Virus record (IMG/VR): IMGVR_UViG_3300006143_000348
DNA length: 64,000 nt
Direction: 5' to 3' (one strand)
From: a virus
Lineage: Duplodnaviria > Heunggongvirae > Uroviricota > Caudoviricetes
Positions 12,722 through 32,855 of the stretch are shown here, piece by piece (within the stretch, counting starts at the first letter, position 1; the number at the start of each line of letters is the position of its first letter). Under the pieces are notes generated by a model that saw nothing but the letters and a program-made list of their open reading frames with translations, had not been told where the DNA came from and made no database searches. Made by a program: the position numbers and the translations under genes.

Positions 12722-12911
12722 CCCCTTATCAAGATAAAAAGGAATATGGGGGGGGGCAAAACGCCCCCTCATCTTGGAACATTAAAATGATAAGCAGGGA
12801 TTTTGCATTATAGAAGCGATAGGGGAATTGCTTCTCAGGTGTTGCTAATCTGGCAACACCTCAAATGGCAAATGGGGTCGCGATTTGCGCTCCTATCAAG
12901 ATAAAAATAAA

Positions 12912-15709: not shown

Positions 15710-16102
15710 ATGGCAAAAATCACAATCGCAGGACAGGCAGTAGTAGTAACCAGCACACTGAAACTGGAGGATATCAAGATGGTTAAGAAGTACCGTCCGG
15801 ATGCACTCACCCTGAGAGGCGGGGAAGATGGGAAGGAGCCTATCTTTGCCCTGGGAGTAGGGGAAGGCGGAATCAATAAGTTCGGTGCTTCCTTCCAGAT
15901 GGAAACACGGGATGAGGAGAAGCTGGCGGTTCTGACGATGACTACAGGGTATGACGGCGACGATATCGAGGAGTTCGTAGCAGACGAGCTTGGTGCGGCA
16001 ATCGTCAACTTAGGCAAGCTGGAAGAGAAACTTCCGGGGGTTATTGATGAGATTAAGGCTGAGAGACAGGCAATCATGTCCAACATCACTGTTGCGCAGT
16101 AG
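15710..16102 (+). CDS. Hypothetical protein (130 aa)
   Basis: AAAAGGAGAA RBS. A hairpin terminator GGCTGCCG-tgaaaatg-CGGCAGCC follows at 16112-16137. Confidence 0.75.
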   Translation: MAKITIAGQAVVVTSTLKLEDIKMVKKYRPDALTLRGGEDGKEPIFALGVGEGGINKFGASFQMETRDEEKLAVLTMTTGYDGDDIEEFVADELGAAIVNLGKLEEKLPGVIDEIKAERQAIMSNITVAQ

Positions 16103-16202: not shown

Positions 16203-16424
16203 ATGATTCAGGTTACAGTAGGAAATAACGTAAAGAGAGAAAAAATGATTGTGGATGCTAACAGGACTCTGCGCAGCGTGCTGGAAGAGGCAGGGATTGA
16301 CTATACAAGGGGTGTGATGCACCTGGATGGCGCTTCGGTGAATCCGGGTGACCTCGATAAGACCTTTGCAAGCTTCGGGATTGCTGAAAAATGTTTCCTG
16401 TTAAGCGTAGTTAAAGCGGATTGA
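16203..16424 (+). CDS. Small beta-grasp (ThiS/MoaD/ubiquitin-like) protein, 73 aa, no terminal GG
   Basis: The pattern 'MIQVTV...VDANRTLRSVLEEAGID...VMHLDGASVNPGDLDKT...FLLSVVK' parallels ThiS 'V.LNG..V......L.DGD.I.I...V.GG'. It ends ...VVKAD rather than GG. AAAAGGAGA RBS. Confidence 0.55.
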   Translation: MIQVTVGNNVKREKMIVDANRTLRSVLEEAGIDYTRGVMHLDGASVNPGDLDKTFASFGIAEKCFLLSVVKAD

Positions 16425-16861
16425 CTAGCAGGCAATGCTAAATAGTCCCATGTGAGAGTAATTTCACATGCAAATCTATCGAATTGCTGGGAACCCCTAA
16501 AGCTCGCAATACCACAACGTAAGAATGAAAGAAATCTAAGCGTGACGGTAACGAAAGTAGAAAGAAATTGCGAGATGGCGCAAGGTTAAATCCTAAACGC
16601 TTTTGCAATGGGCAATCAGCAGCGAAGCTCCGAACAGGAGAACGTTCAACGACTATCCCGTAAGGGAGTAGGGCGCAAGCGGTCGGTGTCCGAAGTGGTA
16701 GACACCCTGAGAAAAAGGGCGATGATATAGTCTGTACTGTAGGGAAACTTACAGAAATCTCTTTGGAGGCAGCATGGAACAGCGAGCCATGCTGAACATA
16801 ATAGAATGCATAGGAGCTTGTAGCACAGTGGCAAGCGGGTTAGGCAACTAGCCCGCTTGTT

Positions 16862-16900
16862 CTTTTAGGTGGGTGAAACTTGGCAGCACCCCGTTTTTTT
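16862..16900 (+). terminator. Rho-independent terminator (GGGTG...CACCC + T10) closing a roughly 430-nt ORF-free structured region (16430-16900)
   Basis: Stem GGTGGGTG/CACCCC followed by TTTTTTTTTT. Upstream is an 8-bp hairpin CAAGCGGG/CCCGCTTG. The region has no ORF longer than 62 aa and is GC-balanced with many hairpins. Confidence 0.6.
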
Positions 16901-17001
16901 TTTCATCCAGTACGGTGAGGAATTCTACAAAGAATACCCATACGAGTGCATGGAATTTGGAGATGGCTGGGATAGGAGCCGGAGGAAAGTGAACAGGGTG
17001 C

Positions 17002-17026
17002 ATGGGTTCAATTCCCATATTCACCA
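17002..17026 (+). other. tRNA 3'-end-like fragment (T-arm ATGGG-TTCAATT-CCCAT + 7-nt acceptor-like strand); candidate att-core remnant
   Basis: GGGTTCAATTCCC is a canonical T-loop. No matching 5' half could be found, so this is not a tRNA gene. Confidence 0.35.
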
Positions 17027-17054
17027 TTAAATAATTTTAGAAGGAGGAATTCAA

Positions 17055-18569
17055 ATGTTTAGACAGGTTGTAAGAGGAACAGCATTAACGACAGCAGAGG
17101 CGGACGCATATTTCGGGCGTATTCACGGAGAGTCTTTTTCAGATGACGTCACATTTCTGTCCACATTAAGGGCGTTGGTTGCACCAAGGATGCAGGAGGG
17201 AGAAAAAGTTTGTGTGAGGTTTATAAATTCGAGCTATGAGGAACGCTCCGTCCAGGGTGCAGGTTCTGATGCAGTGGTCAGGGCTGTTTATAATGCGCAG
17301 TATTTTAATGACGGCTCTGTTACAATCCATGATTTCCGAGGGAGAAAAGAAGATGTCCGTGCGAATTTCGAGGTAATTGAGTCATCTTTTTGCGACGTAT
17401 ACCAGGGATGGCAACGTCTTGAAAAAGTAACGGATTTTTTCCGAAGGACATTTTACTGTGTGTGTTTTGTGAACCCGGAGAGAAGGAGGGTTGTGATTTT
17501 CACAGACCCTCTGAACATGCAGAAAATGCACTACCTGCAGTGTGCAATCTTTGCTTTCATGCCGTGGTATTTCAACCCGGAAGATGGCGTGAAAACGGAG
17601 GAAATGGAACTCATCCAGTCGCTTAGGGGAAAAGACGTTGATGAATATCTGAAATGCATAGCAAAAATTGCATCACAGTATGATTTCAGGAGCGATTACA
17701 TCCGTAAAGCATTGGCAGGTTTTGAAGCCAACTTTGAGAAAAGAGAGCGAGAAGAAGAGAAAGATAAGATTAGAGATTTAATGCTTGACATTGAGCGTTT
17801 CCAGAATAAGTTGGCAGATACTTTGCGAATTAAGCGCAACCATGAAATTAAATTGCTTGGATTGGAAACGAAAATCGCACAGAGCACAGAGGGCGATTCT
17901 GAAATTATGGAATATTTCTTGTGCAACCGGAACCTTTCTTTAAGGGATGTAACGGAGAATATATTGTGCTTTGTTGCGAAAGGGTATGTAACTTACTATG
18001 ACGAGGACATGGCGAAGGCGATGGTTGATAATGAGAACAGCTACGTATATCGGCTTCGTGGATACGATTGCAACAGCCGCATTGAGAAACAGGATATGAA
18101 ACGGCTGATGTATGCGATTTTTATCGACCAGACTCTGAAGCTCAAGTTTTGCGCTGCGTATAAATTTGAGTTCGGGGTGAGGGTGTATGCAATTAGCGGA
18201 TATGAATATAACGAAGAATTTTCTGACTGTATGCCAAACCCCCACATTGACGAGTATAGCTGTATGGGAGATTACGAACGGACAATGAACGAATGCATCG
18301 GGAGTAGTGATTACATTGGCGCTTTAGAGCAGGGCGTTGCTTCCTGCAAGAGCCTGAACTTTGGCGACAGCACAGTTATGCAGGAATTCATGAAACGCAT
18401 GTACGGGTTCGGAGACCGCCCATATCATTGTATTGAACTTCCGGACGGACAGATTGTAACACCTGAAGAGGCCATTCGGTGGATGAAAAAGGAAGATAGA
18501 ATCCAGGAAGAGGATGCAAAAGCAGGGGTAGATGAAACGCAGAAAAGAGGAGGTAGCGGCGATGAGTAA
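17055..18569 (+). CDS. Hypothetical protein (504 aa), translationally coupled to the downstream JAB protease
   Basis: AGGAGGAAT RBS. Its 3' end overlaps the JAB gene start by 8 nt. It contains a 'MPNPHIDEYSC' segment faintly reminiscent of the E2 HPN-Cys region, which is weak evidence. Confidence 0.8.
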   Translation: MFRQVVRGTALTTAEADAYFGRIHGESFSDDVTFLSTLRALVAPRMQEGEKVCVRFINSSYEERSVQGAGSDAVVRAVYNAQYFNDGSVTIHDFRGRKEDVRANFEVIESSFCDVYQGWQRLEKVTDFFRRTFYCVCFVNPERRRVVIFTDPLNMQKMHYLQCAIFAFMPWYFNPEDGVKTEEMELIQSLRGKDVDEYLKCIAKIASQYDFRSDYIRKALAGFEANFEKREREEEKDKIRDLMLDIERFQNKLADTLRIKRNHEIKLLGLETKIAQSTEGDSEIMEYFLCNRNLSLRDVTENILCFVAKGYVTYYDEDMAKAMVDNENSYVYRLRGYDCNSRIEKQDMKRLMYAIFIDQTLKLKFCAAYKFEFGVRVYAISGYEYNEEFSDCMPNPHIDEYSCMGDYERTMNECIGSSDYIGALEQGVASCKSLNFGDSTVMQEFMKRMYGFGDRPYHCIELPDGQIVTPEEAIRWMKKEDRIQEEDAKAGVDETQKRGGSGDE

Positions 18570-19491
18570 GATGGTAAAAATAACCCAGGAGTGCTTAGAA
18601 CAGTGCCAGAAAGAGTTTATGGAAGCGCTGTCCGGGGGCAAGTTCCCGGACGGGAAGGTAACATTTACGAAAACCCTGGGGACGCTGAATAGGAAAGCAC
18701 GGGTACTTTTTAAGGAATTGGCGTGGCTGAAAATGCAGACGCTGATTCGCGAGTTCGATAAGGAAGTGGCATGGCATGGCATAGCTTGCCGGGGAGACGA
18801 ACCGGACACCTATTATATCACAGATATCCTGGTGTATCCGCAGGAAGTTACGGGCGCGACGGTCACAACAGACCAGGAAAAATACCAGATGTGGCTTATG
18901 GGGCACGACGACGACATCTTCAACAACATCAGGATGCAGGGGCATTCCCATGTGAATATGGGTGTTTCGCCTTCGTCTGTGGATACTTCCCTGTATGACC
19001 GTCTGCTTGAACAGCTTGATGACGACATGTTCTATATCTTCATGATTTGGAACAAGAGGAAAGACAGGATGGTTAAGATTTATGACCTGAAAACCAATGT
19101 GCTTTTTGAGACGGAGGACGTAAGCATCGAAGTAGTAGCTGACGAAGACGGGATTGAAAAGTTCCTTAAAAATGCGCGGGAGATGGTGGTAAACAGGCCT
19201 GTGGTCAGCTATGGGCATGGATACCCTGCGAACTTATCGAGATACGATACGCGGTATGGCTTACATTCCGGGGCGTTCGCAGGTTCTCCAAAAAACGGGG
19301 GCAGCACGCCGGGAAAAACGCAAGCCCTTACGGAGTCCAAAGATAAAAAGAAAAAAGGGAGACGTAAGGGCAGGCGTAAAGATGGGTACGGGAAGAATAG
19401 CAACGTAGGCAAGGCAGGCATCTGTACGGACGATGTGGATGTGCTGGACGAGCAGCTCTATGAAAGCCTGTACATGCGTGACTATCATTAA
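18562..19491 (+). CDS. JAB/MPN (JAMM) metalloprotease-domain protein
   Basis: 'GHSHVNMGVSPSSVD' fits the JAMM signature HxH-x7-S-x2-D, with an upstream Glu. The start at ATG 18562 has GAGGAGG 7 nt upstream. The track ORF starts at 18532. Lys/Arg-rich C-terminal tail. Confidence 0.8.
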   Translation: MSKMVKITQECLEQCQKEFMEALSGGKFPDGKVTFTKTLGTLNRKARVLFKELAWLKMQTLIREFDKEVAWHGIACRGDEPDTYYITDILVYPQEVTGATVTTDQEKYQMWLMGHDDDIFNNIRMQGHSHVNMGVSPSSVDTSLYDRLLEQLDDDMFYIFMIWNKRKDRMVKIYDLKTNVLFETEDVSIEVVADEDGIEKFLKNAREMVVNRPVVSYGHGYPANLSRYDTRYGLHSGAFAGSPKNGGSTPGKTQALTESKDKKKKGRRKGRRKDGYGKNSNVGKAGICTDDVDVLDEQLYESLYMRDYH

Positions 19492-20098: not shown

Positions 20099-20176
20099 TG
20101 GTGACCCCCTGGCGGAAAATGATTCTTCCTAAATTCAGCGAAATATGATATAGTGGCAAATAAGGAGGTGCTTAGT

Positions 20177-20731
20177 ATGGGATTAGCTGAATTTGAACGA
20201 AGAAAAGATGAAAAAATTGACGGAGTGATATATGATATGTCACCATCTCCAGGATATCGGCATTGCATTATCAATGGTAATATTTATACTATAATTAGGC
20301 AAGGATTAAAAAGCAGCATATGCCTTGTGTCTATGGAAAACTTGGATTTTAAATACCATCCTGATATAAATGATGATTACTTATGTCCAGATATCATGGT
20401 TATGTGCGACCGGAAACATTTAAAGGGCGGAGCCTACAGTGGCGTCCCCAAGTTCATCGCTGAAACATTAAGCCATTCGACAGCGAAGAGAGACAGGACG
20501 GAAAAGAAAGATATCTATGAAAAGGCGGGCGTGGAAGAATACTGGATTGTTTCGCCGCAGGGGTCTTTAGAAATCTATTTCTTGCAGGATGGGAAATATA
20601 TACTGGAACAGAACTATATGCTCCAAAACGACAAGGAAGACGATGAGTATAATGCAGAGATAGAAATATGTCTCAGGGAATTCCCACATATCAAGATGAC
20701 ATTAGGAGAAATTTTTGAGGGAATCGAATAA
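20177..20731 (+). CDS. Uma2-family (DUF820) PD-(D/E)xK endonuclease
   Basis: 'MSPSPGYRHCII', 'PDIMVM', 'FIAETLSHSTAKRDRTEKKDIYEKAGVEEYWIVSP' match the Uma2 family signature. The start at ATG 20177 has AAGGAGG 7 nt upstream. The track start 20153 contains the SD sequence. Confidence 0.85.
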   Translation: MGLAEFERRKDEKIDGVIYDMSPSPGYRHCIINGNIYTIIRQGLKSSICLVSMENLDFKYHPDINDDYLCPDIMVMCDRKHLKGGAYSGVPKFIAETLSHSTAKRDRTEKKDIYEKAGVEEYWIVSPQGSLEIYFLQDGKYILEQNYMLQNDKEDDEYNAEIEICLREFPHIKMTLGEIFEGIE

Positions 20732-21047: not shown

Positions 21048-21770
21048 TTGGAAGAGATTAATATTTTTAGTAATGAGGAGTTTGGTGAAATTAGGACGGT
21101 AATTATTGATGGAGAGCCGTGGCTTGTAGGAAAGGATGTAGCGTTGGCGTTGGGATATTCTGAGCCGAGAAGTGCTGTTTCAAAAAGAGTAGATAAAGAA
21201 GATAGAGGTGTTGCCAAAACGGCAACACCATCGGGGATACAGGAAATGACCATCATTAATGAATCTGGTTTGTACGCCCTTATCTTTGGAAGCAGGCTTG
21301 AATCCGCGAAGCGTTTCAAGCACTGGGTGACATCCGAAGTTCTCCCTGCAATCCGCAAAACAGGCAGGTATATTGCACCATCTGAGGGCACGATGGAATC
21401 TATGTTCGAAGCCATGAGCTGTGATATGAAAATGGTTTATGAGCAGATGAACAAATTTGATGAGCGGATGGAAAGCGTAGAATCCATGATGCAGGAACAG
21501 TCAGGGAAATTAAACCAGGTAGTAGACAATATGACTCTGACAACCAGACAGCAACAGCGGATTTATAAAGCAGCGAAAGATAGAATCAACCATCTGCTCG
21601 GCGGCGCACATTCTGAGGAATATAAAAGCCGTTCTAAAAGCTACTTCATTAACTTATGGAACGGTCTAAAAGCAGAGTTCGAGTGCGGCGGGTCGTATAA
21701 GGACTTGAATCATGTCTATTTCGATGCTGCGCTGGGGTATATTGGGTCGTGGCGGTATGTAGAAACATAG
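21048..21770 (+). CDS. Bro-N + ORF6C antirepressor paralog
   Basis: 'MEEINIFSNEEFGEIRTVIIDGEPWLVGKDVALALGY' is Bro-N. The C-terminal ORF6C region is near-identical to 10914..11678. Confidence 0.85.
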   Translation: MEEINIFSNEEFGEIRTVIIDGEPWLVGKDVALALGYSEPRSAVSKRVDKEDRGVAKTATPSGIQEMTIINESGLYALIFGSRLESAKRFKHWVTSEVLPAIRKTGRYIAPSEGTMESMFEAMSCDMKMVYEQMNKFDERMESVESMMQEQSGKLNQVVDNMTLTTRQQQRIYKAAKDRINHLLGGAHSEEYKSRSKSYFINLWNGLKAEFECGGSYKDLNHVYFDAALGYIGSWRYVET

Positions 21771-21835
21771 TCGGGAATTTAAGAACATTTGTACGATATT
21801 GGTATTGACATAGCACGGGGGTTGTGGTAGGATAG

Positions 21836-22102
21836 TGCAAACGGATGTTTGAAATGGTTTTTTGAAAAAAAGTACAGCCGAGCTGCAACTCGACTGTACG
21901 GGTATTACTAATTAGTCGGCAATCACTCCGACTCACACTAAGAAAAAATGAGGTTGCATGAACAACAACCACAACTTTATTCAATGAACAAGCACAAACA
22001 AACTTGTTCGTATCTAGTATGCCACGAAATGCACAGAAAGTCAACAGGGAAATTCTGAAAATATCAAGTTGATTTTAAAAGCTCACCGCAAGGTGGGCTT
22101 TT
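21836..22102 (+). ncRNA. Candidate structured RNA / long leader (copy B), downstream of the promoter at 21805-21833 (TTGACA-N17-TAGGAT), with terminator GCTCACC-GCAA-GGTGGGC + T4 at 22081-22102
   Basis: Same hairpin set as copy A, with loop and sequence differences that preserve the stems. Confidence 0.35.
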
Positions 22103-22143
22103 GATATATATGTACAGAATAAAAGGAAATTGTAGAATCGAAC

Positions 22144-22179
22144 TGTCGCAAATTTGCGACATATTTCAAGATAAAAAAA
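22144..22179. promoter_or_regulatory. 16-bp perfect palindrome GTCGCAAATTTGCGAC followed by the 'TTCAAGATAAAAAAA' motif (candidate operator/promoter element of the antirepressor genes)
   Basis: Related palindromes sit at 23060-23082 (GGGGGTCGCAAATCGCGACCCCC) and 12871-12890. The TCAAGATAAAAA motif recurs at 12120, 12729, 12896, 22165, 23084 and 46033. Confidence 0.4.
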
Positions 22180-22318
22180 TTTGGGATGTGAGAATTTTCG
22201 CGAGTTAAACCAAGAGGGTGAAATCCGCCCGCTTGGTTTAGAAATGTCGTAGGGTAAAACATGGCAAAAGGGTATTTGGCTGGGAACTAACGAAAATAAT
22301 TTAGGAGGGAAAGTAGAT

Positions 22319-23023
22319 TTGGAAGGGATTGAGATTTTTAGCAACCAGGAATTTGGTGAAATTAGAACGGTGGTTATTGATGGTGAGCCGTGGTTTGTGG
22401 GGAAGGATGTAGCGTTGGCGTTGGGGTATGAGAAGCCGAGAAATGCCATAGCTACACATGTTGATGTAGAGGATAAAAAGGGAGCCCCGATTCAGGGCTC
22501 CCCTGGGGGAACACAGGAAATGATTGTCATTAACGAATCTGGAATGTACGCTCTGATTTTTGGAAGCAAACTTGAATCCGCGAAACGTTTCAAGCACTGG
22601 GTGACATCCGAAGTTCTCCCTGCAATCCGTAAAACAGGCAGGTATATTGCACCATCTGAGGGTACGATGGAATCTATGTTTGAAGCTATGAGCTGCGATA
22701 TGAAAATGGTTTATGAACAGATGGGCAATATAGAATCTATGATGCAAGAACAGTCAGGAAAATTGAACCAGGTAGTAGACAACATGACTCTGACAACCAG
22801 ACAGCAACAGCGGATTTATAAAGCAGCGAAAGACAGAATCAACCATCTGCTCGGCGGCGCACATTCTGAGGAATATAAGAGCTGTTCTAAAAGTTACTTC
22901 ATTAACTTATGGAATGGGTTAAAAGCAGAGTTTGACTGTGGCGGTTCGTATAAGGACTTAAACCCTGTCTATTTCGATGCCGCGCTGGGGTACATCGGGT
23001 CGTGGCGGTATGTGGAAACATAG
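22319..23023 (+). CDS. Bro-N + ORF6C antirepressor paralog
   Basis: Full-length counterpart of the truncated 12269..12721. AGGAGGG RBS. Confidence 0.85.
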   Translation: MEGIEIFSNQEFGEIRTVVIDGEPWFVGKDVALALGYEKPRNAIATHVDVEDKKGAPIQGSPGGTQEMIVINESGMYALIFGSKLESAKRFKHWVTSEVLPAIRKTGRYIAPSEGTMESMFEAMSCDMKMVYEQMGNIESMMQEQSGKLNQVVDNMTLTTRQQQRIYKAAKDRINHLLGGAHSEEYKSCSKSYFINLWNGLKAEFDCGGSYKDLNPVYFDAALGYIGSWRYVET

Positions 23024-23099
23024 TCGGGAAATAACTTAATTTCAGTCTGAGTAGCAAAGGGGGTCGCAAATCGCGACCCCCTTTCAAGATAAAAATAAA

Positions 23100-23819
23100 A
23101 TGAAAGAGGTATTCACAGTGGAAAATGTAGCATTAATTCAGGGGACGGAATTACAGATTAAAGAGTATCAGGGGAACAGGGTTGTGACGTTTAAGGATGT
23201 TGACAGAGTTCACCAGAGGCCGGATGGGACGGCAAGAAGGCGGTTCAACGATAATAGGAGGCGATTTCTTGAGGGGACTGATTACTTTAAAGTTTGTGCG
23301 TCCGAAATTCGGACGCACAACATTATGGACATATCAAGCAAAGCACATGAAGATATGACCCTCCTTACTGAAAGCGGCTATCTCATGTTAGTAAAGTCTT
23401 TTACTGACGACTTAGCTTGGAAAGTCCAGAGGGATTTGGTGAACACATACTTCAAGATGAAAGAAGTAGTAGAATCCGCCACCCCGGAGGAAACAGGAAT
23501 GGTTCTCACGCAAGAGGGTTTTGCAGATGCAGTCCATGCACTGACTGGGTGTGCAAGCATATTCCAGTCGATGCTCGACTACTCCACAATCAACTATAAG
23601 CAACAGCAGGAACTTTTACAGGCGGCAAGGCGGCGGGTAAGCCACCTTCTCGGCGGGGCACATTCGGACAGGTACAGGCAGTCGTCCAGGATATACTTCA
23701 GGAATCTCTGGCAGGATTTCTGCGAGTACTTCTCTTGCGGCTCCTACCGGGATTTAAACCCGCAGTATATGGTAGATGACGCTGCGGCAAGGTGGATTTC
23801 GGAGTGGTCATATGGCTGA
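23100..23819 (+). CDS. ORF6N(KilA-N-like)-ORF6C antirepressor-like protein (copy B of 12912..13628)
   Basis: Near-identical to copy A except for a divergent segment ('FKVCASEIRTHNIMDISSKAHEDMT' vs 'FKITPSEFRTAIGDMDLRQQNNVT'). Confidence 0.85.
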   Translation: MKEVFTVENVALIQGTELQIKEYQGNRVVTFKDVDRVHQRPDGTARRRFNDNRRRFLEGTDYFKVCASEIRTHNIMDISSKAHEDMTLLTESGYLMLVKSFTDDLAWKVQRDLVNTYFKMKEVVESATPEETGMVLTQEGFADAVHALTGCASIFQSMLDYSTINYKQQQELLQAARRRVSHLLGGAHSDRYRQSSRIYFRNLWQDFCEYFSCGSYRDLNPQYMVDDAAARWISEWSYG

Positions 23820-24093
23820 TAATGCAAGGGCTGGGTGCTTAGATATCCAGGGAGATAACAGGAGGGTTTTTGTGGGCAGAAGAGAATATGCAAAACGCAG
23901 CAAGCGGGGTAAACGCCTCAGGATGTTAAAGCAGCGGCTTGTGGCGATAGAAATATTGCTTATATGCGTGCTTATCACTGTGTGGGAGTTCGAGGGCAAC
24001 AACGGAATCCCCTGCGACATGTGCGGGACTATCCTCATCGCGGTGCTTGCTTTGTACTTGCTTTTTACGAAGGAGTGCTGGGTTTATGACTGA
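23812..24093 (+). CDS. Small membrane protein (copy B of 13621..13902)
   Basis: Same two hydrophobic helices. The start overlaps the upstream stop. GTG 23872 is an alternative start. Confidence 0.5.
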   Translation: MADNARAGCLDIQGDNRRVFVGRREYAKRSKRGKRLRMLKQRLVAIEILLICVLITVWEFEGNNGIPCDMCGTILIAVLALYLLFTKECWVYD

Positions 24094-24210
24094 GGGAAAT
24101 GACTGCTATAAGCGATGAGGGAGTCCATTCGGTGGACATCCCCTTTGGAGCACAGAAACGACAATTATGGACGAGCTACGGAAACATTATTGCTTAGAGA
24201 GGAGAAATTA

Positions 24211-24980
24211 GTGGAAGTAATTGAGATTTTTTTTAGCAATGAAAAATTCGGGGAAATCAGGGCGGTAATCACCGATGGCGAGCCGTGGTTTGTGGGGAAA
24301 GATGTGGCGACGGCGTTGGGATATAAAGACGCAAAAAAGCTTTAAAAGTTCATGTTGATGAAGAGGATAGACAGTTAATCCAAAGGGGGCAAACCGCCCC
24401 CTTAGAAATCCCGAATCGTGGAATGACCATCATTAACGAATCTGGCTTGTATGCCCTTATATTTGGAAGCAAACTTGAATCTGCTAGGCGTTTCAAACAC
24501 TGGGTAACATCCGAAGTTCTCCCTGCAATCCGCAAAACAGGCAGGTATATTGCACCATCTGAGGGGACGATGGAATCTATGTTTGAAGCTATGAGCTGTG
24601 ATATGAAAATGGTTTATGAACGAATGAGCAATATAGAAAGTAAAATTGATGAGCGGATGGAAAGCGTAGAATCCATGATGCAGGAACAGTCAGCTATGAT
24701 GCAGGAACAGTCAGGAAAATTGAACCAGGTAGTAGACAACATGACTCTGACAACCAGACAGCAACAGCGGATTTATAAAGCAGCGAAAGACAGAATCAAC
24801 CATCTGCTCGGCGGCGCACATTCTGAGGAATATAAGAGCTGTTCTAAAAGTTACTTCATTAACTTATGGAATGGGTTAAAAGCAGAGTTTGACTGTGGCG
24901 GTTCGTATAAGGACTTAAACCCTGTCTATTTCGATGCCGCGCTGGGGTACATCGGGTCGTGGCGATATGTAGAAACATAA
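24211..24980 (+). pseudogene. Bro-N + ORF6C antirepressor paralog disrupted by a frameshift (track ORFs 24115..24345 and 24423..24980)
   Basis: The N-terminal part (VEVIEIFFSNEKFGEIRAVITDGEPWFVGKDVATALGYKD) ends at 'AKKL*' inside an A-run. The +1 frame then continues KVHVDEEDRQLIQRGQTAPLEIPNRGMTIINESGLY.... Intact paralogs read straight through. Confidence 0.6.
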
Positions 24981-25062: not shown

Positions 25063-25734
25063 ATGGATTTAAGCAAATCATATGAGTTTTTCCAGCCAGA
25101 AAAGGACAATGCGAGGATACATATCGTGGGGTGTGGTTCGGTCGGTTCCACGATTGCTGAAAACCTGGCGCGCTGCGGTGTAACAAAGATGACACTGTGG
25201 GACTTCGATAAGGTGGAAAACCACAATATCGTGAACCAGATGTTTAACCAGAATGATGTAGGGAAGCTTAAAGTCGAGGCGCTGAAAGATATGCTGGTAG
25301 ACATCAATCCAGAAATAGCGGATGGCATTGATATGAAGCCGGAGGGATGGCAGGGGAAAATGATGTCCGGCTATATCTTCCTGTGTGTGGACAGCATCGA
25401 ACTGCGCAGGGAAATTGTTGAAAAGCATATGGACAGCCCATATGTGAAAGCGGTCTTTGACTTCAGGACGCTCTTGGAAAGCGCACAGCACTATGCCGCT
25501 GACTGGTCAGACTATAAGATGAAGAAAGACCTGCTGAACTCCATGCAGTTCTCCCATGATGAAGCGAAGGAGGAAACCCCGGTGTCTGCCTGCGGAGTGA
25601 CGCTTGGCGTGGCTACGACAGTCCGTCTGGTCTGTGCGCTTGGAGTAAACAACTACATCAATTTTGTCAAAGGCAACGGTATTAAGAAGCTGGTTTTAAT
25701 AGACGGATTTGGTTTTGATTTGATGGCGTTTTAG
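25063..25734 (+). CDS. E1-like / ThiF-MoeB-family adenylyltransferase (Rossmann nucleotide-binding domain only, 223 aa)
   Basis: 'IHIVGCGSVGSTIAENLARCGVTKMTLWDFDKVENHNIVNQ' matches the ThiF/E1 GxGxxG plus 'D.D.V..SNL.RQ' signature. AAAGGAGGA RBS. No CxxC Zn motif. Confidence 0.85.
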   Translation: MDLSKSYEFFQPEKDNARIHIVGCGSVGSTIAENLARCGVTKMTLWDFDKVENHNIVNQMFNQNDVGKLKVEALKDMLVDINPEIADGIDMKPEGWQGKMMSGYIFLCVDSIELRREIVEKHMDSPYVKAVFDFRTLLESAQHYAADWSDYKMKKDLLNSMQFSHDEAKEETPVSACGVTLGVATTVRLVCALGVNNYINFVKGNGIKKLVLIDGFGFDLMAF

Positions 25735-26080
25735 GGGATGGGCGCTTAAAGCGCCCTCACATAAGCATGTAATGAAATTTATCTCCAAGAGGTAGCTCCT
25801 TACTGTTAGTGGGAGTAACAATTTGATAGAAAGGCCAGGGAGGTATCCCACGGCTGCCAAAAGGGTTTTAAATCCTGGTACAAGATTGGCAGGTGGTTCA
25901 AAAAAAAATCCGACAGTAGCGAATGAGTAAGCAGCTTGATTGGTAAAAGTACTGTCCCACAGTCTTTCTTATCATCAAATCATTTCGGAGCCTCTACCCT
26001 CCCCAGGGTGACCGAAGGGTTCCAAAGACATCATCATAATACATGAGATTACATGCTTTTCATAGAAAGGAAGGTGCAGT
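25735..26080 (+). other. 346-nt ORF-free leader upstream of the reverse transcriptase; candidate ncRNA (retron msr/msd-like or DRT ncRNA)
   Basis: Contains hairpin CTCC-ttACTGTTAGTG-GGAG with the 'GTAACAATTTGATAGAAAGG' motif. There is an imperfect long-range inverted repeat, ACTGT..TGGGA (about 25800) against TCCCA.CAGT (about 25950). Related motif copies sit at 27300-27330 and 28245-28262. Confidence 0.35.
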
Positions 26081-27220
26081 ATGTTCTATATTACAGTTAA
26101 GCAGTCGCCAATGTATCATCAAATGACATTGGAAGAGTTTCTGTTTAATACAGAAGTTAAAAGTACATGTATTAATCCAAATATGACCAATACACGTACA
26201 TACGAAATAGCGGAAATCAGTGAAAGGTTTTTAGGGACGGTAGATGTAAGGAAATTGATAGCAAAGCTTGTCCAGTTCAATGATTCCGTCGCAGAATTAA
26301 AGAGCGCTCCAAGACATGAGCTTTACCATACGTTCCATATCCCGAAGAAGAGCGGAGGGTTAAGGAAGATTGACGCCCCGAATGCAGAATTAATGGATGC
26401 GCTGAGACGGCTGAAAACCATTTTCGAGGAAGATTTCAAAGCCTTGTACCATACGTCCGCATTCGCATATGTGAAACACCGCAGCACCTTAGATGCTGTG
26501 AAGAGACACCAGGCGAATGCAAGCAGGTGGTTTGGGAAATACGACCTTTCCAATTTCTTCGGGAGCACGACTCTGGAATATGTAATGCATATGCTCGGGA
26601 TGGTTTTCCCATTTTCGGAGGTACTGAAGCAGGGGATTGGGAGAAGCGCATTAAGCGATGCACTGGAGCTTGCATTCCTTGATGGGGCTTTGCCGCAGGG
26701 GACGCCATTATCCCCGCTGCTTACTAACATCATAATGATTCCGGTGGATTTCAAGCTGGCAAACACATTAAGGGAATATAATCATCAGCGGTTTGTTTAT
26801 ACAAGGTACGCTGATGATTTTTTAGTTTCATCCAGATACCAGTTCAGCTTCCGGGAGATTGAGGCACTGATAATATCGACGCTCGCTGATTTTGGCGCGC
26901 CGTTTACCATTAATCCAGGGAAGACCCGGTATGGGTCATCCGCGGGTTCAAACTGGAACCTTGGAGTGATGCTGAACAAAGACAATCAGATTACCGTGGG
27001 ATACAAAAAGAAACGGCAGTTCCAGGCGATGCTGGCATCGTATGTCATGGACAGGAGGAATGGGACGCCCTGGGATAAGACGGACATCCGGGTAATGGAA
27101 GGATACAGGAACTACTATAGGATGATTGAGAAAGAAACCATTGACGCTATGGTAAAACATGTTGGCGATAAATTTGGCGTTGATATCGTGGCGTTAATTA
27201 AGACAGATTTGAAAATCTGA
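26081..27220 (+). CDS. Reverse transcriptase (retron/Abi/DRT-type, 379 aa)
   Basis: RT motifs: 'IPKKSGGLRKI' (motifs 1/2), 'FGKYDLSNFFGS' (A), 'LPQGTPLSPLLTNI' (B), 'YTRYADDFLV' (C, YADD). No maturase or endonuclease domain. AAAGGAAGG RBS. Confidence 0.9.
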   Translation: MFYITVKQSPMYHQMTLEEFLFNTEVKSTCINPNMTNTRTYEIAEISERFLGTVDVRKLIAKLVQFNDSVAELKSAPRHELYHTFHIPKKSGGLRKIDAPNAELMDALRRLKTIFEEDFKALYHTSAFAYVKHRSTLDAVKRHQANASRWFGKYDLSNFFGSTTLEYVMHMLGMVFPFSEVLKQGIGRSALSDALELAFLDGALPQGTPLSPLLTNIIMIPVDFKLANTLREYNHQRFVYTRYADDFLVSSRYQFSFREIEALIISTLADFGAPFTINPGKTRYGSSAGSNWNLGVMLNKDNQITVGYKKKRQFQAMLASYVMDRRNGTPWDKTDIRVMEGYRNYYRMIEKETIDAMVKHVGDKFGVDIVALIKTDLKI

Positions 27221-27565
27221 GTTCGCGATATATAAGAACTTTAAAGAATCGAAGAGTCTTCCGCTGCAATGATATTATATCTGTTTTTGGATATGCTCCT
27301 AGCTGTCAGCGGGATGTAACAATTTGATGAAAAGGGAAATAAGCAGCCTAGGGAACCGAGTCCGGTGTAAGGTCATGGCAACAGATGCCGAAATCCACGG
27401 AAATTTGATTAAAACGCAGTATATTAGACTGAAAGGTACTGTATTACAAAGGTTGCAGAAGATAGTAATCAGCAGAAACGTCAGCTAAGTCAGGCTGCTC
27501 GCCTCCAGATTGGCCTTTTACTAAAGTAGTATTCCCCACTAGATTGCTTGGAGGACTCTGAAAAA

Positions 27566-28129
27566 ATGAAAAGGGAGGAAATTAGAATGAGTTTTACGAT
27601 GAACATATCTGATATTAAAATTCCCGAAGGCTTTGCAAAAAGCGTTCCGGGAAAAGCAAAAATGGATAGGTGCAGGAGATATTACAGCAAGAATGGGTGC
27701 CTTGACAGGGATATTGTGGTTGACAAAAACGGTTACTTGCAAGATGGCTATATCGGCTATCTTGTTTTAGTAGAAAACGGAGCAACGCACACAGAGGTTA
27801 TCCAGAAAGGGTATGACAGGGAATATAGAAACAGCTTTGCCCCACAGGTTGGTGACTGGGTAAAAATCCGCGACTGGGAGGATATGGAAGAGGAGTTTGG
27901 GGTATCTGAGAACGGATGGATTGAGTGCCGTTTCCGTTTTACTAAAGAAATGCAGAGCGGTATAGGAGGTCTTGAATTTGAAATTACGGAAATTAAGTAT
28001 GACGAGTATCTCGGACATGATTCCGAGTGGAAGATATCAAAAGATATGCTGATGCCAGCAGGTGATATGTATGTTGATTCGGACGAGGTTGATAAATTTT
28101 TGGAATCAATTAAAGTCGTAGACCAATAG
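27566..28129 (+). CDS. Hypothetical protein (about 187 aa) between the RT and the AAA+ ATPase
   Basis: Clean ORF. Alternative starts are ATG 27548 (track) and ATG 27587 (GGGAGG 8 nt upstream). A 327-nt leader precedes it. Confidence 0.7.
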   Translation: MKREEIRMSFTMNISDIKIPEGFAKSVPGKAKMDRCRRYYSKNGCLDRDIVVDKNGYLQDGYIGYLVLVENGATHTEVIQKGYDREYRNSFAPQVGDWVKIRDWEDMEEEFGVSENGWIECRFRFTKEMQSGIGGLEFEITEIKYDEYLGHDSEWKISKDMLMPAGDMYVDSDEVDKFLESIKVVDQ

Positions 28130-28393
28130 GTTTGATATTAAATGCGCATGTCGCATCTTGATTAAACCCCACAATGTAAATGAATTACCTTTCCAGTACA
28201 AATGTGTATGTGGCGATAAAGCCATATAGGAATTGTAATAACTCTCGACTGTTAGTGAGAGGTTCGCAAAGCTAGCTTGCACTCATAAATGAGTGGCAGG
28301 TTTTCGCATAAGCTACTTTCCTTCCACAATGAAAGTAGCTTACGGATTGTGGGAATAGTCACAATTAAATAACAATATAACAAGGAGAAGATT

Positions 28394-29503
28394 ATGAAAG
28401 CAATTAGCCAGGGAAACAATACGTATGACATTTTTGATGATTCACTGCAGGTATATGAACAGCTGCCTGCACAGTTCTATGTAGTGAGGTTCAGCGAAAA
28501 CAGGGGATTTTCCCTTGTGAAGAGTCCAGAAATGGAAATTAAAGAGCCGAAAGTGTATGGCGTACATGACGAAAAGGTACAGAAAGTTATGAAAGCATTT
28601 ACTACAATGAACCGTAGCCTGGGAGTGATTTTGAGCGGTGATAAAGGTATCGGCAAGTCGCTGCTTGCAAAGATGCTTGCGGTAACTTCTATTAAAGGCG
28701 GTATGCCAGTTATCATAGTGGACACATATTATCCAGGAATTGCCTCTTATATCGAAGATATCGAACAGGAGGTAATGATTTTGTTTGACGAATTTGATAA
28801 GACCTTCGGCACTGTAAGAGCAAAGGATGGGGACGCATCCCCACAAACACAGATGCTGTCCTTGTTTGACGGGATTTCTGTTGGGAAGAAGCTGTTTGTA
28901 GTTACATGCAATGAGCTTGCGAACTTGAGTGATTACTTGGTAAACAGGCCGGGGCGGTTCCATTACCATTTCCGGTTTGAGTATCCATCGGTGCAGGAAG
29001 TCAGACAGTACCTGAGAGATAAACTGCCGGAGAAATACCACGGGGAGATTGAAGACGTGGTTTCTTTTTCCGGAAAGGTAAACCTGAACTACGACTGCCT
29101 GCGCGCAATTGCATTTGAGTTGCAGATGGGTTCTGCATTTGGCGAGGCGATTAAAGACTTAAATATCATCAATATTGAGAAGGTGTACTATATAGTCACT
29201 TTGAAATACGCGAATGGATTCACAGCGGTGAATAGGAGAGTACAGCTGGATATGTTCGGAGGGGAGGAAAGGGAGACCGTATACTTATACGATAATAACG
29301 AGGGCAATTTCGTTGATGTCGAGTTTACACCGACGGACGCGGTGTTTGACACTTCCATGTGTGCCCATGTAATAACGCCTGACAAGTTCAGCCTCGACTA
29401 TATAGAGTCGTATGTAGAGTCTTGCAAAGCAGCAAAAGCAAGTGAGCCGGAGTGCTTGGTTATTACCCGAAAGATGGACAAAAATATCCACTACTTGGCA
29501 TAG
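28394..29503 (+). CDS. AAA+ ATPase
   Basis: Walker A 'GDKGIGKS', Walker B 'ILFDEFDK', sensor-2/Arg region 'NRPGRFHYH'. CAAGGAGAAG RBS. Confidence 0.85.
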   Translation: MKAISQGNNTYDIFDDSLQVYEQLPAQFYVVRFSENRGFSLVKSPEMEIKEPKVYGVHDEKVQKVMKAFTTMNRSLGVILSGDKGIGKSLLAKMLAVTSIKGGMPVIIVDTYYPGIASYIEDIEQEVMILFDEFDKTFGTVRAKDGDASPQTQMLSLFDGISVGKKLFVVTCNELANLSDYLVNRPGRFHYHFRFEYPSVQEVRQYLRDKLPEKYHGEIEDVVSFSGKVNLNYDCLRAIAFELQMGSAFGEAIKDLNIINIEKVYYIVTLKYANGFTAVNRRVQLDMFGGEERETVYLYDNNEGNFVDVEFTPTDAVFDTSMCAHVITPDKFSLDYIESYVESCKAAKASEPECLVITRKMDKNIHYLA

Positions 29504-29509: not shown

Positions 29510-31250
29510 GGTGATATGTCAAGAACTTTTTGAAAAAGATTTTGATATGTTTTTCAGAAAAAAGGGTAACTTTAACAGACCTTCGGTATATTTTACGAAA
29601 AACCGAAGGTCAGTTCGACTCGATATTATATTCGGTGTCCAGCTTTTCGCCGGTGTACAGTTGGTTTTTGACCAGCAATCCAAAAACGAGTCGTACAAAT
29701 TTACGAGATGTAAGCGCGAGTGCTCTTTTGTGCTGATGTCTGGTTACCTCAGCATATTTTCTGGCATAAAAATCAGCATATTGAGGGATGTGCTTCCTGA
29801 CGCTGTTTGCCGCTTCGCCAAGATAGTAGCGAAGATAGGGATTTCCGGCTTTCGACATGTTGTTGTCCTCAGAAGTGAAATCTCCGGAATCACCTTTAGG
29901 CCAGTAAAGCCCGGCATATTTGGCAAGGGCATCGGACGAATGAAATGCTGTTATATCGCCTATTTCTGACAGGATCCCGGATGCCCATACTGGACCTATT
30001 CCAGGTATGGACCTGAGGATGATCAGGGCATTAGGGTTCATTCCGTTGATGCATTTCCCAATCGCCTGCTCTATCAGCCTGATTTCTTTCTGATAGGCAT
30101 GGATGCAGTTAAACGAGCTTGCCAGTGATATGTTCAGTGGTTCGTACATGCACTTGTCTAACCGGTAGGAATCCCTGGCTGCCTTCCGCAGAAGTTCGGA
30201 AGTTTTGGATATGTCAGAGATGCGGTTCCTGCTCTTTTCCGCAAGAAAAGCAAGCAGATCCTCTTCCGGCATATCAATGATCTCCTGTGGTGACAGAAAT
30301 TCTGTCAGGACAGCTGAGGACGTGGCGCCATAGAGACTGCCAAAAGGCTTATCATCACCTTCAAGGAGCTGAAGCTCACTAAACTTCAGATAAAGATTAG
30401 ACACCATATAAGTCTTCTCCCTGGTGATGCACTCAGAAAGGTGCATACGGTGCCTTGTAAGGCGTTTCAGGGCTATGAACTGCCCGCCGTGCCATGGCTC
30501 CAGTTTTTTCGTGCGGCCTACCCTGCCAAAGTCTGCAATGAGATATGCATCTGTGGGATCAGTCTTCTCCATTCCGATATAGGACTTTCGGTAATTGGAA
30601 GTGGTCTTTGGGTTTACACAGAAGACGTAAGGTCTGTAGGGCATGAGAACCTCACTGGTCGACAGGAAGTTGGAAATATGCACGCTGTACACAGAAGTGG
30701 ATTCCAACACGATAAGAAGGGTATCCAGGTTTTGATGCTTCTGCATACACTCCGCAATCATATCCACAAGCTGATCGGCACCCGGCTGATTATTGCCAAA
30801 CGATGATGAGATGTATTTGTTTTCCTCAAAGTCCATCGCATAGACAGCATTGGTCTTTGAGCTTACATCAATACCTACAAACAAGGTGGACATATAGTTG
30901 ATCTTTAACATGATATCACCTCCGTTCTGATCGGGATTTGTGAAGCCTGAAGCAAAAGGGTTATCCTGTGCTGCATACGGTGACCGAAACCTCGCGCAAT
31001 GAGCATGCACCCAGTCAGCCTTTCTTGCTGGGGCTAACGGCTGGGGATGAAAATTCTGTGTCAGCGGAATATGCCGTATGTGCCAGGCTGAATGCTATCG
31101 AAGCAGTCTCGGACTAAGCCGGCTGAAAGGAGGAACAGCAGTGCCTTCGGACATCAGACTCTGCCTGATATCATACCACAGGATAAACAATTATGAAACT
31201 GGGTTGTACAGGTGATGAAAGGGTGGGAGGGGAATCCTCCTGATTGCCTT
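29510..31250 (-). mobile_element. IS110-family insertion sequence (approximate boundaries)
   Basis: Contains the IS110-type transposase gene plus about 300 nt of non-coding left end and about 90 nt of right end. It sits between the AAA+ gene stop (29503) and the SPFH operon. IS110 elements lack terminal inverted repeats, so the ends are estimated. Confidence 0.5.
29610..30911 (-). CDS. IS110-family transposase (DEDD-type N-terminus + IS110 C-terminal domain)
   Basis: 'MSTLFVGIDVSSKTNAVYAM' at the N-terminus. C-terminal 'IPGIGPVWASGILSEIGDITAFHSSDALAKYAGLYWPKGDSGDF' is the IS110/IS116/IS902 signature. The start is set at MLKINYMSTLF (ATG 30911, GGAGGTGA RBS) rather than the track's upstream extension. 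Confidence 0.85.
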   Translation of the reverse strand: MLKINYMSTLFVGIDVSSKTNAVYAMDFEENKYISSSFGNNQPGADQLVDMIAECMQKHQNLDTLLIVLESTSVYSVHISNFLSTSEVLMPYRPYVFCVNPKTTSNYRKSYIGMEKTDPTDAYLIADFGRVGRTKKLEPWHGGQFIALKRLTRHRMHLSECITREKTYMVSNLYLKFSELQLLEGDDKPFGSLYGATSSAVLTEFLSPQEIIDMPEEDLLAFLAEKSRNRISDISKTSELLRKAARDSYRLDKCMYEPLNISLASSFNCIHAYQKEIRLIEQAIGKCINGMNPNALIILRSIPGIGPVWASGILSEIGDITAFHSSDALAKYAGLYWPKGDSGDFTSEDNNMSKAGNPYLRYYLGEAANSVRKHIPQYADFYARKYAEVTRHQHKRALALTSRKFVRLVFGLLVKNQLYTGEKLDTEYNIESN

Positions 31251-32452: not shown

Positions 32453-32855
32453 GTAAAATGGTGGTCTGGGCTGGTTATAGGAACAATGCATGTAGCATTG
32501 CCGCAAGCAAAACGGCTGGTTCCGGCCACCACATAAGAATAGTATTTTGCCTATAATGATATGACTGCATTGCAGTGCTTCTAACTGTTAGTAGAAGTTT
32601 CATGAAGGTAGCAGGGGGAAAGGAGAAGGAACACGCGATGACACTAGGAAAAAAGTTCCCTATATCAAGATGTTCATCCTAAAAGTGGGCGTTAAACTAA
32701 CTGTTGCACAGTACGAAAAACACAAGCATCGCGCTGCCAGAAAGAAGACGACCCTGCTGAGGCTCCTGATTTTAATAGCTTTTTGTATAATGGATTATAG
32801 GTAAAAGGGGTGACTGTAAATTGGGCTTGTAAGAAAGTATATATGAGGAGGGTAT

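Follow-up and report, generated by a model that had tools for sequence, protein, structure and literature searches.

What is a reverse transcriptase (RT) doing in a phage genome among long, motif-sharing stretches that contain no open reading frame (ORF)? This question is raised by positions 25,735 to 29,503 of a 64,000-nucleotide (nt) stretch of viral DNA (IMG/VR record IMGVR_UViG_3300006143_000348, Caudoviricetes), the whole of which we call the window. A first-pass annotation had read this segment as an apparent operon of three genes, encoding an RT of retron or defence-associated RT (DRT) type, a 193-amino-acid (aa) protein and an AAA+ ATPase, each preceded by a long leader that might act as a cis-acting RNA. 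All of the elements that it described exist where it placed them. We found, however, that the "leaders" are non-coding RNAs (ncRNAs) of the retron msr-msd type, not regulatory leaders and not three leaders of one operon, and that a fourth copy, at 32545-32806, had been missed. We consider it likely that the phage encodes a retron whose single RT, of retron type, works with a set of cognate msr-msd ncRNAs: four in the window, and two to four near the RT in its relatives.

We began with the class of the RT. The gene lies at 26081..27220 on the + strand and encodes 379 aa, with the YADD motif at residues 243-246 (nt 26807-26818). As the annotation had held, there is no maturase or endonuclease domain: Pfam detects RVT_1 alone in the protein, and no fused effector domain either. 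In PADLOC, the best match is RT_II-A (149.8 bits, 2.7e-44), followed by I-A, III-A and XIII, and the best 25 of the 70 matching families are all retron families, with no DRT family among them. The best NCBIfam match is the retron St85 family (167 bits, E 4.7e-49; curated cutoff 235), and the closest PDB matches are the retron RTs Ec83, Ec78, an St85-family enzyme, Ec67 and Kva2. The N-terminal ~55 aa have no counterpart in the solved retron RTs. The most conserved residues of the retron motifs NAXXH (region X) and VTG (region Y) are the H and the G, respectively (PMC7736814); here region X, aligned to NAKIH of Ec83 and NAAAH of Ec78, reads AVKRH (residues 139-143) and keeps the H, and in region Y VTG is replaced by NLG (residues 293-295), which keeps the G.

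Could the RT instead belong to a group II intron, a diversity-generating retroelement (DGR), or a DRT, unknown-group (UG) or abortive-infection (Abi) system? Weak secondary matches of this kind do exist, at 81.7 bits for the group II RT/maturase model, 38 bits for Drt2 and 21 bits for Drt3a. The corresponding cutoffs are far higher (300 bits for TIGR04416, 390 for Drt2 and 200 for Drt3a), and the retron models come out on top. An intron is contradicted both by the domain content of the protein and by Rfam, which, run over the whole window at the gathering threshold, reported a group I intron and a RAGATH-16 RNA alone and no group II intron. For a DGR, no template/variable repeat pair was detected in the 64-kb window, which covers about half of a phage genome of ~120 kb, or in 1.4 Mb of related loci. 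We therefore give these alternatives next to no credence, and on its profile and PDB matches we assign the RT to the retron clade. Of the annotation's double label, "retron" has held up and "DRT" has not, and its view that this is no group II intron RT agrees with our results.

We next turn to the RNAs. The RT, 193-aa and AAA+ genes do stand behind long ORF-free gaps, of 346 nt (25735-26080), 327 nt (27221-27547) and 264 nt (28130-28393), respectively. The hairpin-loop motif CTGTYAGYG, reported as common to all three, occurs at exactly three sites in the 64 kb, all on the + strand and one per gap (25803, 27303 and 28249). The count by itself is unremarkable, with at least three sites in 12 of 100 shuffles; the placement of the sites and their hairpin context carry the weight. 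The second reported motif, GTAACAATTTGAT, has exact matches in two of the gaps, at 25815 and 27316. Including the copy further downstream, the window contains four ncRNAs, all on the + strand. They follow a common plan. An a1/a2 helix particular to each copy closes the RNA, and the base that comes right after a1 is an invariant G. Then come hairpin 1, which varies, and hairpin 2, which is conserved, followed by a GUAACAAYUUGA segment, a centre that evolves fast and contains a long hairpin, and finally a conserved AGAUU that leads into a2.

ncRNA 1, of msr-msd type, spans 296 nt (25763..26058, +) and was delimited by covariance model and by its a1/a2 helix. The a1/a2-like inverted repeat noticed in the 346-nt region proved to be a perfect 11-bp long-range helix, AAGCATGTAAT at 25763-25773 pairing with ATTACATGCTT at 26048-26058. 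The candidate branching G (25774) is followed by hairpin 1 (25780-25794), hairpin 2 (25796-25815, loop CUGUUAGUG), the segment GUAACAAUUUGAU (25815-25827), a central ACUGU-CCC-ACAGU hairpin, and finally AGAUU and a2. The fold is better than that of all shuffled sequences (z = -2.9), and in orthologs the msr and a2 are conserved and the centre is divergent. ncRNA 2 (307 nt, 27253..27559, +) begins 33 nt 3' of the RT stop codon and was located by covariance model (65.5 bits) and by its helices: an outer one that pairs 27253-27263 with 27549-27559, and an inner one that pairs GCAAU (27266-27270) with AUUGC (27543-27547). Its G is at 27271 and its hairpin 2 loop at 27303-27311. A 54-aa ORF inside ncRNA 2 (27324-27488) was considered as a coding sequence and ruled out, because a variant from the same species carries 1-nt indels in this central part.

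The third leader holds a short subtype, ncRNA B (186 nt, 28168..28353, +), defined by its centroid fold and by the arms of its orthologs. Its a1, CCCACAAU (28168-28175), is followed by G 28176 and pairs with a2, AUUGUGGG (28346-28353), in the centroid fold (z = -4.5); hairpin 1 is lacking, and hairpin 2 is at 28242-28261. Orthologs of ncRNA B have compensating arms, for example ACCCCAAT/ATTGGGGT and GTCCCCGTAT/ATACGGGGAC, and hairpin 2 alone matches the covariance model of the longer class (class A). ncRNA 3 (262 nt, 32545..32806, +) was found by covariance model (36.3 bits, E 7.5e-6). Its a1, UUUUGCCUAUAAU (32545-32557), precedes G 32558 and pairs with a2, AUUAUAGGUAAAA (32794-32806), over 13 bp with one G-U pair; the hairpin 2 loop is CUGUUAGUA, and the helix score is 27 versus 19 in shuffled controls. 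The covariance model behind these assignments, R1, was derived from an nhmmer/MAFFT alignment (A2) of 36 copies and comprises 77 positions and 14 base pairs. Run with filters off, it matches the window at 25762-25838 (72 bits, E 5e-14), 27259-27339 (E 1.6e-12) and 32546-32620. Rfam yielded chance-level matches only over 25.0-29.7 kb at E <= 10.

If these RNAs are the templates of a retron, their structure should be maintained in related phages. An RT protein search returned 4,819 matches at E <= 0.001; among the best 120 of these, which are 71-100% identical to the RT, many lie on metagenomic contigs of ~115-120 kb, with numerous homologs of 71-82% identity. A further 79 related loci, with RT identities of 35-75%, came from IMG/VR viral contigs. 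Our comparison set comprised ~85 related phage loci with RT identities of 35-82%, and we found the RT to be conserved across an entire lineage of phages of 50-150 kb. The location in a phage, as annotated, is also supported by the window's genes for DnaB, Pol III alpha, NrdD and a YonO-like RNA polymerase.

In these relatives, the hairpin motif is repeated several times per locus on the strand of the RT. R1 gave 102 matches across 56 loci, and 102 of 102 were on that strand. The annotation had allowed that the leaders might prove to lack conservation or structure in homologs; instead, the a1/a2 helix and the hairpins are kept, and the stems covary. Measured over 75 distinct sequences, 82% of the cells that should be paired in the R1 alignment are paired, compared with 61.5% in shuffles, and the covariation score is 0.597, compared with 0.224 in shuffles (0 of 500 reach the observed value) and at most 0.19 when the partners are slid. 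Hairpin 2 is 93% paired and shows double changes at seven of its eight pairs. For the a1/a2 helix, 73 of 96 distinct copies have a helix score of at least 20, compared with 0 of 96 shuffled downstream controls. The 5' arm ends exactly one base before the invariant G in ~80 of the 96 copies, and the 3' arm (a2) lies 250-400 nt downstream. The G itself is kept throughout the 36-sequence alignment, and we regard it as the candidate branching G, whose 2'-OH would act as primer. The arm sequences vary freely among copies (ATTAACTGTAAT/ATTACAGTTAAT, AATATTGCAAT/ATTGCAATATT, and an 18-bp pair in locus L003). Because the arms differ in this way between copies and genomes, the changes in them are compensatory. 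Similarly, RNAalifold, applied de novo to 12 orthologous post-RT RNAs, recovered the a1/a2 helix (9 bp, none broken, five pairs compensated) together with hairpin 1 and hairpin 2. The long or GC-rich central hairpins are seen in single-sequence folds only. The RNA features that define a retron are a1/a2 repeats, a junction G, msr hairpins, a long hairpin and a co-oriented position adjoining the RT (PMC7736814), and the RNAs of the window and its relatives have these features.

Why should there be several such RNAs? In the related loci, two to four ncRNAs flank one RT, and at least two copies are present in 40 of the 42 loci with matches when 7 kb on either side is considered. The first copy begins 289-400 nt 5' of the start codon (ATG) of the RT gene, another begins 2-41 nt 3' of its stop codon, and ~300 nt after the latter there is often a third. 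Many relatives carry tandem ncRNAs with no intervening gene. In L080 and L082, whose RTs are 39-40% identical to that of the window, there are tandem arrays of two to four short, a1/a2-closed RNAs, each with a perfect, GC-rich hairpin; arrays are thus present in distant clades (RT 39-42% identical), with other recognition hairpins.

This arrangement bears on whether the leaders have a cis-regulatory effect on their downstream genes (the RT, a 180-aa protein, the AAA+ ATPase and the ORF at 32856), so that reverse transcription of a template in the 5' untranslated region, or the fold alone, would control downstream translation or stability. Such a role would resemble that of the hybrid RNA of type VI retrons, in which a template is joined to an effector under translational repression (bioRxiv 10.1101/2025.10.22.683967), and it would fit the fact that all four ncRNAs of the window end 22-50 nt 5' of the next start codon. 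However, the tandem copies without an intervening gene, with three to four in a row in L080, and the variety of the downstream genes (RNase H1, ligase, AAA+, small ORFs) make cis control less likely, and a2 does not overlap the ribosome-binding sites. We judge this explanation to be unlikely.

The evidence from relatives further shows that the type of hairpin 2 changes from one RT clade to another. Its type is uniform within one genome and differs between RT clades: the loop is CUGUYAGYG in the RT clade of the window, GCCAAAGGC or GCCGAUAGC in the clade with 63-65% identity, GGUUAUAUCC in the clade with 42% identity, and GGUUUUAUC in L080. A hairpin that is clade-specific and uniform within each genome is the pattern expected from co-evolution with the RT. 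The RNA evolves at unequal rates along its length, fastest in the centre. Between the window and a same-species contig, L090, identity is 100% in the msr, 98.5% in the RT gene and 93-94%, with indels, in the centres. Where the RT genes have 72% nucleotide identity, the msr is still 83-88% identical, but alignment of the msd centres is no longer possible. BLAST searches with the central (msd) regions against the 64-kb window and the 1.4 Mb of related loci returned orthologous ncRNAs only. Use of the msd as a DGR template, a recombination donor or a spacer-like guide was considered and rejected, as no second copy is present in the sampled DNA.

Alternatively, the shared hairpins could be ordinary regulatory or processing signals that have nothing to do with reverse transcription, such as targets of a phage RNA-binding protein, signals used by the YonO-like polymerase or RNase processing sites. 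The phage does have its own non-canonical RNA polymerase, and the motif does sit in intergenic leaders, in a region where the counts of sigma-70-type promoters and intrinsic terminators equal chance; because of those counts, the promoter and terminator scan is in itself uninformative. To account for the data, however, such signals would have to be confined to the surroundings of the RT: when the 64 kb were scanned under relaxed structural criteria for hairpin 2, a CUGUUAG loop core was present in the four ncRNAs and nowhere else, each time on the + strand and no more than 7 kb from the RT, and the scan otherwise returned three hairpins that are unrelated and differ in their loops (one on +, two on -). 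In addition, every copy has the full retron signature of a1/a2, junction G, long central hairpin and AGAUU-a2, and the hairpin type shifts with the RT clade. We thus find this explanation very improbable. In sum, the annotation was right to suspect structured RNA in the leaders, and of the options that it named, an msr-msd-like ncRNA is the one that is supported; a DRT-like template and a common regulator site are improbable.

How might the proposed multi-template retron work? By analogy with characterized retrons, we infer that it produces multicopy single-stranded DNA (msDNA), with hairpin 2 as the recognition element. The RT would recognize hairpin 2 and its closing stem, priming would occur from the 2'-OH of the junction G, and the region upstream of a2 would be copied into single-stranded DNA. 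With one RT copying each ncRNA, several different msDNA species would be expected per infected cell. RNase H1, with a hybrid-binding domain, is encoded directly after the RT in many relatives (L001, L002, L005, L006, L086, L087 and L088), which fits the processing of an RNA-DNA hybrid; where present, this phage enzyme may trim the hybrid. As for the biological role, we suggest with low confidence that this is a conflict module whose payload would be the variable, fast-evolving msDNA hairpins, possibly coupled to the cascade of ubiquitin-like (Ubl) proteins encoded upstream. The hairpins could act as decoys or sponges for nucleic-acid-sensing proteins of the host or of rival phages; alternatively, the msDNAs could be sensors or scaffolds for the adjacent Ubl machinery.

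The annotation had grouped the RT with the two genes that follow it. Such a tripartite defence or exclusion operon would be comparable to type I ATPase retrons or to DRT systems: an ATPase accompanies the RT in type I retrons, in this phage species the three genes follow one another on one strand, and ncRNA B stands 5' of the AAA+ gene in three divergent phages. The first of the two genes, the 193-aa ORF (27548-28129, +), starts at a TTG; the likely true start is the ATG at 27587, which is preceded by a GGGAGG ribosome-binding site, to give a protein of 180 aa (27587..28129) with a weak ParB-like N-terminal match (3.8e-5). The second (28394..29503, +) encodes an AAA+ ATPase (PF00004, nSTAND3) of the common phage family phrog_2376 (4.8e-103). 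Synteny contradicts the grouping. Homologs of the 193-aa protein change position among relatives or are absent, and in L001 and L086 a distance of 6.9 kb separates the AAA+ gene from the RT. In most loci there is no AAA+ gene near the RT, and its family also occurs in Enterococcus phages without a close homolog of this RT. The genes that follow the RT and ncRNA 2 in relatives include those for RNase H1, small ORFs, NAD+ salvage enzymes, DUF6273 and ligase, among others. Furthermore, PADLOC detected no retron effector: there is no PtuA or OLD match, the AAA+ protein reaches 1.1e-3 to PDC-S73, and the 193-aa protein matches nothing. We conclude that the 193-aa and AAA+ genes are bystanders outside the conserved unit; that they and the RT form a defence operon is highly improbable.

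Downstream of the AAA+ gene, an IS110-family transposase gene (29610..31010, -; PF01548, PF02371) parts ncRNA B and AAA+ from an SPFH gene and ncRNA 3. Because L090 lacks it, we consider it a recent, strain-specific insertion into the phage genome. In three relatives, NAD+ salvage genes are found a few kb 3' of the RT (L001 10926-12678, L086 12921-14673, L087 14159-17140). The set consists of a nicotinamide mononucleotide (NMN) transporter, a NadR-like kinase/adenylyltransferase, NAMPT, a phosphoribosyl pyrophosphate (PRPP) synthetase and an NAD synthase, and resembles phage NAD+ reconstitution pathways of counter-defence. Given these genes in relatives, the RT borders a variable auxiliary region of counter-defence-like character.

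The conserved neighbours of the RT lie on its other side. The gene order p130 - p73 - p504 - p319 - (p170) - ThiF - RT is kept in 82 of the 82 loci that retain upstream sequence, with RT identities down to 35%, and in the most distant loci this cassette is the sole remaining similarity to the window. Immediately upstream of the RT, a ThiF-family E1-like adenylyltransferase of 223 aa (25063..25734, +) is identified by Pfam (PF00899, 1.1e-22), and the E1-E2 models of PADLOC match its E1 part. In relatives, ThiF is always 0.8-2.3 kb upstream of the RT, and the RT starts 13 nt (L080) or 4 nt (L082) after the ThiF stop codon. The 319-aa protein p319 (18532..19491, +) is a JAB/MPN+ (JAMM) metalloprotease: the motif E...HSHVNMGxTPSxVD (HxHx7SxxD plus an upstream E) is invariant in 39 homologs, and with an AlphaFold2 model (mean pLDDT, the per-residue model confidence, of 68; 75-92 in most of the folded core), Foldseek ranked Rpn11, CSN5, JAMM1 and BubCD highest (E 1e-6, probability 1.0). 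This fold search was needed because profile searches of Pfam and PDB were nearly blank, with Rpn11 at E 0.79.

The remaining members of the cassette are less securely assigned. p504 (504 aa, 17055..18569, +) is a candidate E2/RWD-like protein, on the basis of its fold model (pLDDT 88), in which two alpha/beta domains are linked by a coiled coil, an invariant HYLQC motif and a weak match to E2 (BilB)/RWD-like proteins. The small protein p73 (73 aa, 16203..16424, +) is, from its context, a putative Ubl; its profile match to DUF2604 is non-significant. Homologs of p73 are 58-90% identical across loci and end in ...VVKADNA(A), or in one case ...ADGGIH. p130 (130 aa, 15710..16102, +) is the first gene of the cassette and is fused to the Ubl-like gene in L025 and L082. 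Because p319, p504 and p73 accompany it, we view ThiF as the E1 of a Bil/Bub-like module and not as a stray neighbour. The non-E1 components have no match among Pfam or NCBIfam families. A PRTRC (ParB-related, ThiF-related) cassette was considered and set aside: PRTRC_ThiF scores 28.6 bits against a cutoff of 145, none of the neighbours matches PRTRC A-F, and the ParB-like match of the 180-aa protein is weak.

Several features of these genes were observed in passing. L025 (452-2144) has three Ubl-like copies, two of them fused in frame to p130, and L082 (3260-3868) has a p130 fusion; the triplication and the fusions resemble polyubiquitin or ubiquitin-fusion precursors that would need processing by the JAB protease. 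In the window, a group I intron (Rfam RF00028, 82.5 bits; 16430-16754) lies exactly at the 3' end of p73, whose ORF ends in ...VVKAD plus a stop at the intron junction, compared with ...VVKADNA(A) in intron-less homologs. As the putative exon junction that we tried still stops after D, the phage may make a pre-trimmed Ubl. The intron sits where three relatives have an extra retron-type ncRNA, between the Ubl-like and E2-like genes (L036 3646-3723, L038 3638-3715, L081 3643-3720). Just past the intron, a short ORF (16869-17030) repeats the C-terminal motif EEFYxEYPYECMEFxDG of an acidic 190-aa protein (14997-15569) and looks like a duplicated fragment. Six paralogous anti-repressor-like genes (10914-13628 and 21048-24980) combine a Bro-N, P22_AR_N or ORF6N N-terminus with an ORF6C C-terminus, one of them split by a frameshift (24115-24345 and 24423-24980). 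It is in the species of the window alone that such a block, with a gene for an Uma2 nuclease (20153-20731), parts JAB/p170 from ThiF.

Do the RT/ncRNA array and the upstream Ubl, E2-like, JAB and E1 genes form one functional system? This would refine, and not compete with, the proposal of a multi-template retron; in its variants, the RT and its msDNA sense or scaffold Ubl conjugation, or the Ubl machinery takes the place of the retron toxin. The invariant order of the cassette and its persistence as the last similarity in distant loci favour a single system, as do the very short ThiF-RT distances in L080 and L082, the extra ncRNA between the Ubl and E2-like genes of some phages, and the identification of JAB by motif and fold and of E1 by Pfam. 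In the window, however, the 5 kb of Uma2 and Bro/KilAC genes separate JAB/p170 from ThiF with neither side disrupted, and the E2 and Ubl assignments are weak. Moreover, the loci all derive from a single group of related Clostridia phages, and common inheritance may be enough to explain the synteny. We found no precedent for a link between retrons and E1, E2 or JAB proteins: full-text searches of the literature outside subscription-only papers turned up neither a retron-E1/JAB association nor a phage retron with several ncRNAs. Overall, we hold a single system to be possible rather than probable. The same tentative standing applies to the broader idea that a widespread lineage of gut Clostridia phages uses a retron not with a toxin, but as a multi-product single-stranded DNA factory, in which one RT reads an evolvable array of templates and which forms one system with a phage Ubl cascade.

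How does this system compare with known ones? By profile and PDB matches, its nearest RTs are those of Retron-Sen2 (St85) and of Ec78/Ec83, which represent types II-A1 and I-A of RT clade 1 (Mestre et al. 2020, PMC7736814). Like them, the phage system has an ncRNA directly 5' of the RT on the same strand, with a1/a2 repeats, a G ending a1, msr hairpins and an msd hairpin. Unlike them, it has two to four ncRNAs per RT rather than one, and it lacks a cognate toxin of their kind, whether nucleoside deoxyribosyltransferase (NDT)-like or a PtuA ATPase with a PtuB HNH nuclease. Its RT has an N-terminus longer by ~60 aa, the AVKRH/NLG motifs and a score under the family cutoff, and it lies in a conserved part of the genome, not in a defence island. 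The tripartite retrons of types I-XIII carry cognate effectors that include ATPase plus HNH, OLD/Toprim, NDT, phosphoribosyltransferase, two-transmembrane, helix-turn-helix, protease and TIR proteins (PMC7736814); in the phage system PADLOC found none, and the downstream genes are not conserved. The stand-alone or "orphan" cassettes of RT clades 2 and 11 (Mestre et al. 2020, PMC7736814) also consist of an RT and an ncRNA with no recognizable adjacent effector, but they are bacterial, have a single ncRNA and belong to other RT clades, whereas the system described here is a phage-borne array with invariant Ubl/JAB/E1 neighbours. In type VI (Retron-Vpa2), one RNA embeds a small toxin ORF and is accompanied by a helix-turn-helix protein (bioRxiv 10.1101/2025.10.22.683967). 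There, as here, the template RNA runs on without a break into the 5' part of a coding sequence downstream and the logic is not that of a classic toxin-antitoxin pair, but no conserved ORF lies within the phage RNAs, which may be arranged in tandem and are followed by unrelated genes.

Retrons on viral or satellite genomes are not new in themselves. Those of E. coli include Ec73 on phiR73 and Ec67 on phiR67, which are borne by a prophage or satellite as accessory defence cargo with an effector and a single ncRNA; the phage RT differs from them in being conserved across its lineage. In a separate comparison, the retron-type RTs annotated in Pseudomonas Pf and Klebsiella phages proved distant (25-29% identical). 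The neighbouring genes, for their part, resemble Bil/Bub operons and CBASS (cyclic-oligonucleotide-based antiphage signalling) Cap2/Cap3 in having a ThiF-type E1 and a JAMM protease. Two further features recall these systems: a small protein with a processed-looking C-terminal tail, and the weak E2 (BilB)/RWD-like match of p504. In contrast to them, the phage E1 is short and stands alone (223 aa), the putative Ubl ends in ADNA and not GG, the E2 assignment is weak, and the set is phage-encoded and adjoins a retron. By the criteria of RT and RNA, we file the system under retrons, outside the 13 described types.

Several points weigh against the multi-template retron that we propose. The RT falls short of the NCBIfam retron cutoff, at 167 bits against 235, and keeps both retron signature motifs in part only. 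No Rfam family corresponds to the ncRNAs. The msDNA, its 2'-5' branch and the recognition of the RNAs by the RT are all steps that we infer. The tripartite logic of characterized retrons is absent, because no effector was found. The rapid change of the msd fits relaxed constraint as well as it fits an arms race, and the msd regions, which have no other match in the DNA sampled, give no pointer to a target. Finally, the synteny of the RT with the Ubl/E1 genes could reflect the common descent of one phage lineage and not functional coupling.

Some further observations concern the phage itself. An identical p504 is present on 67 contigs, the longest of 120,488 bp. The hosts are probably Clostridia, as relatives were binned with metagenome-assembled genomes of Ruminococcus, Roseburia, Lachnospiraceae and Oscillospiraceae. 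In the GenBank phage collection, an RT protein search revealed no cultured relative but an unannotated faecal contig at 39% identity, and a nucleotide search gave nothing beyond short AAA+ and ThiF matches. The polymerase gene of the window (1895-4639, -) encodes a 914-aa protein with a Pfam RdRP match (PF05183, 1.5e-16; phrog_25339) that looks like a YonO-like two-barrel RNA polymerase; homologs in L080 and L082 are 1.3 kb 3' of the RT (~2.5 kb from its start). The RAGATH-16 RNA (Rfam RF03047, 75 bits, above the gathering score) is in the early region, at 9523-9594 (+). Downstream of the studied region, 39465-42258 encodes a class-V aminotransferase (cysteine desulfurase-like, PF00266, 1.5e-78) and an AAA_14/DUF4143 ATPase.

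The accepted picture of a retron is that of a bacterial toxin-antitoxin defence system with three parts: one RT, one ncRNA and one effector. Our results indicate that the same RNA and RT chemistry is a conserved feature of an abundant, uncultured phage lineage, in a layout that we have not found described for any retron: several templates per enzyme, no toxin, and an adjoining Ubl-conjugation module. The R1 model and the a1-G...AGAUU-a2 signature permit these RNAs to be annotated in gut viromes. If msDNA is indeed made, then retron RTs would be naturally multiplexed on templates with a common msr, which would be relevant to retron-based genome editing, and the question would arise of what a virus does with multicopy single-stranded DNA. 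Proof of msDNA would also provide a testable link between retrons and Bil/Bub-type Ubl conjugation, both of which have so far been studied as host immunity only. A phage single-stranded DNA factory that works as one system with the Ubl cascade would constitute a retron system of a new class, and the first to be used by the virus and not by the host.

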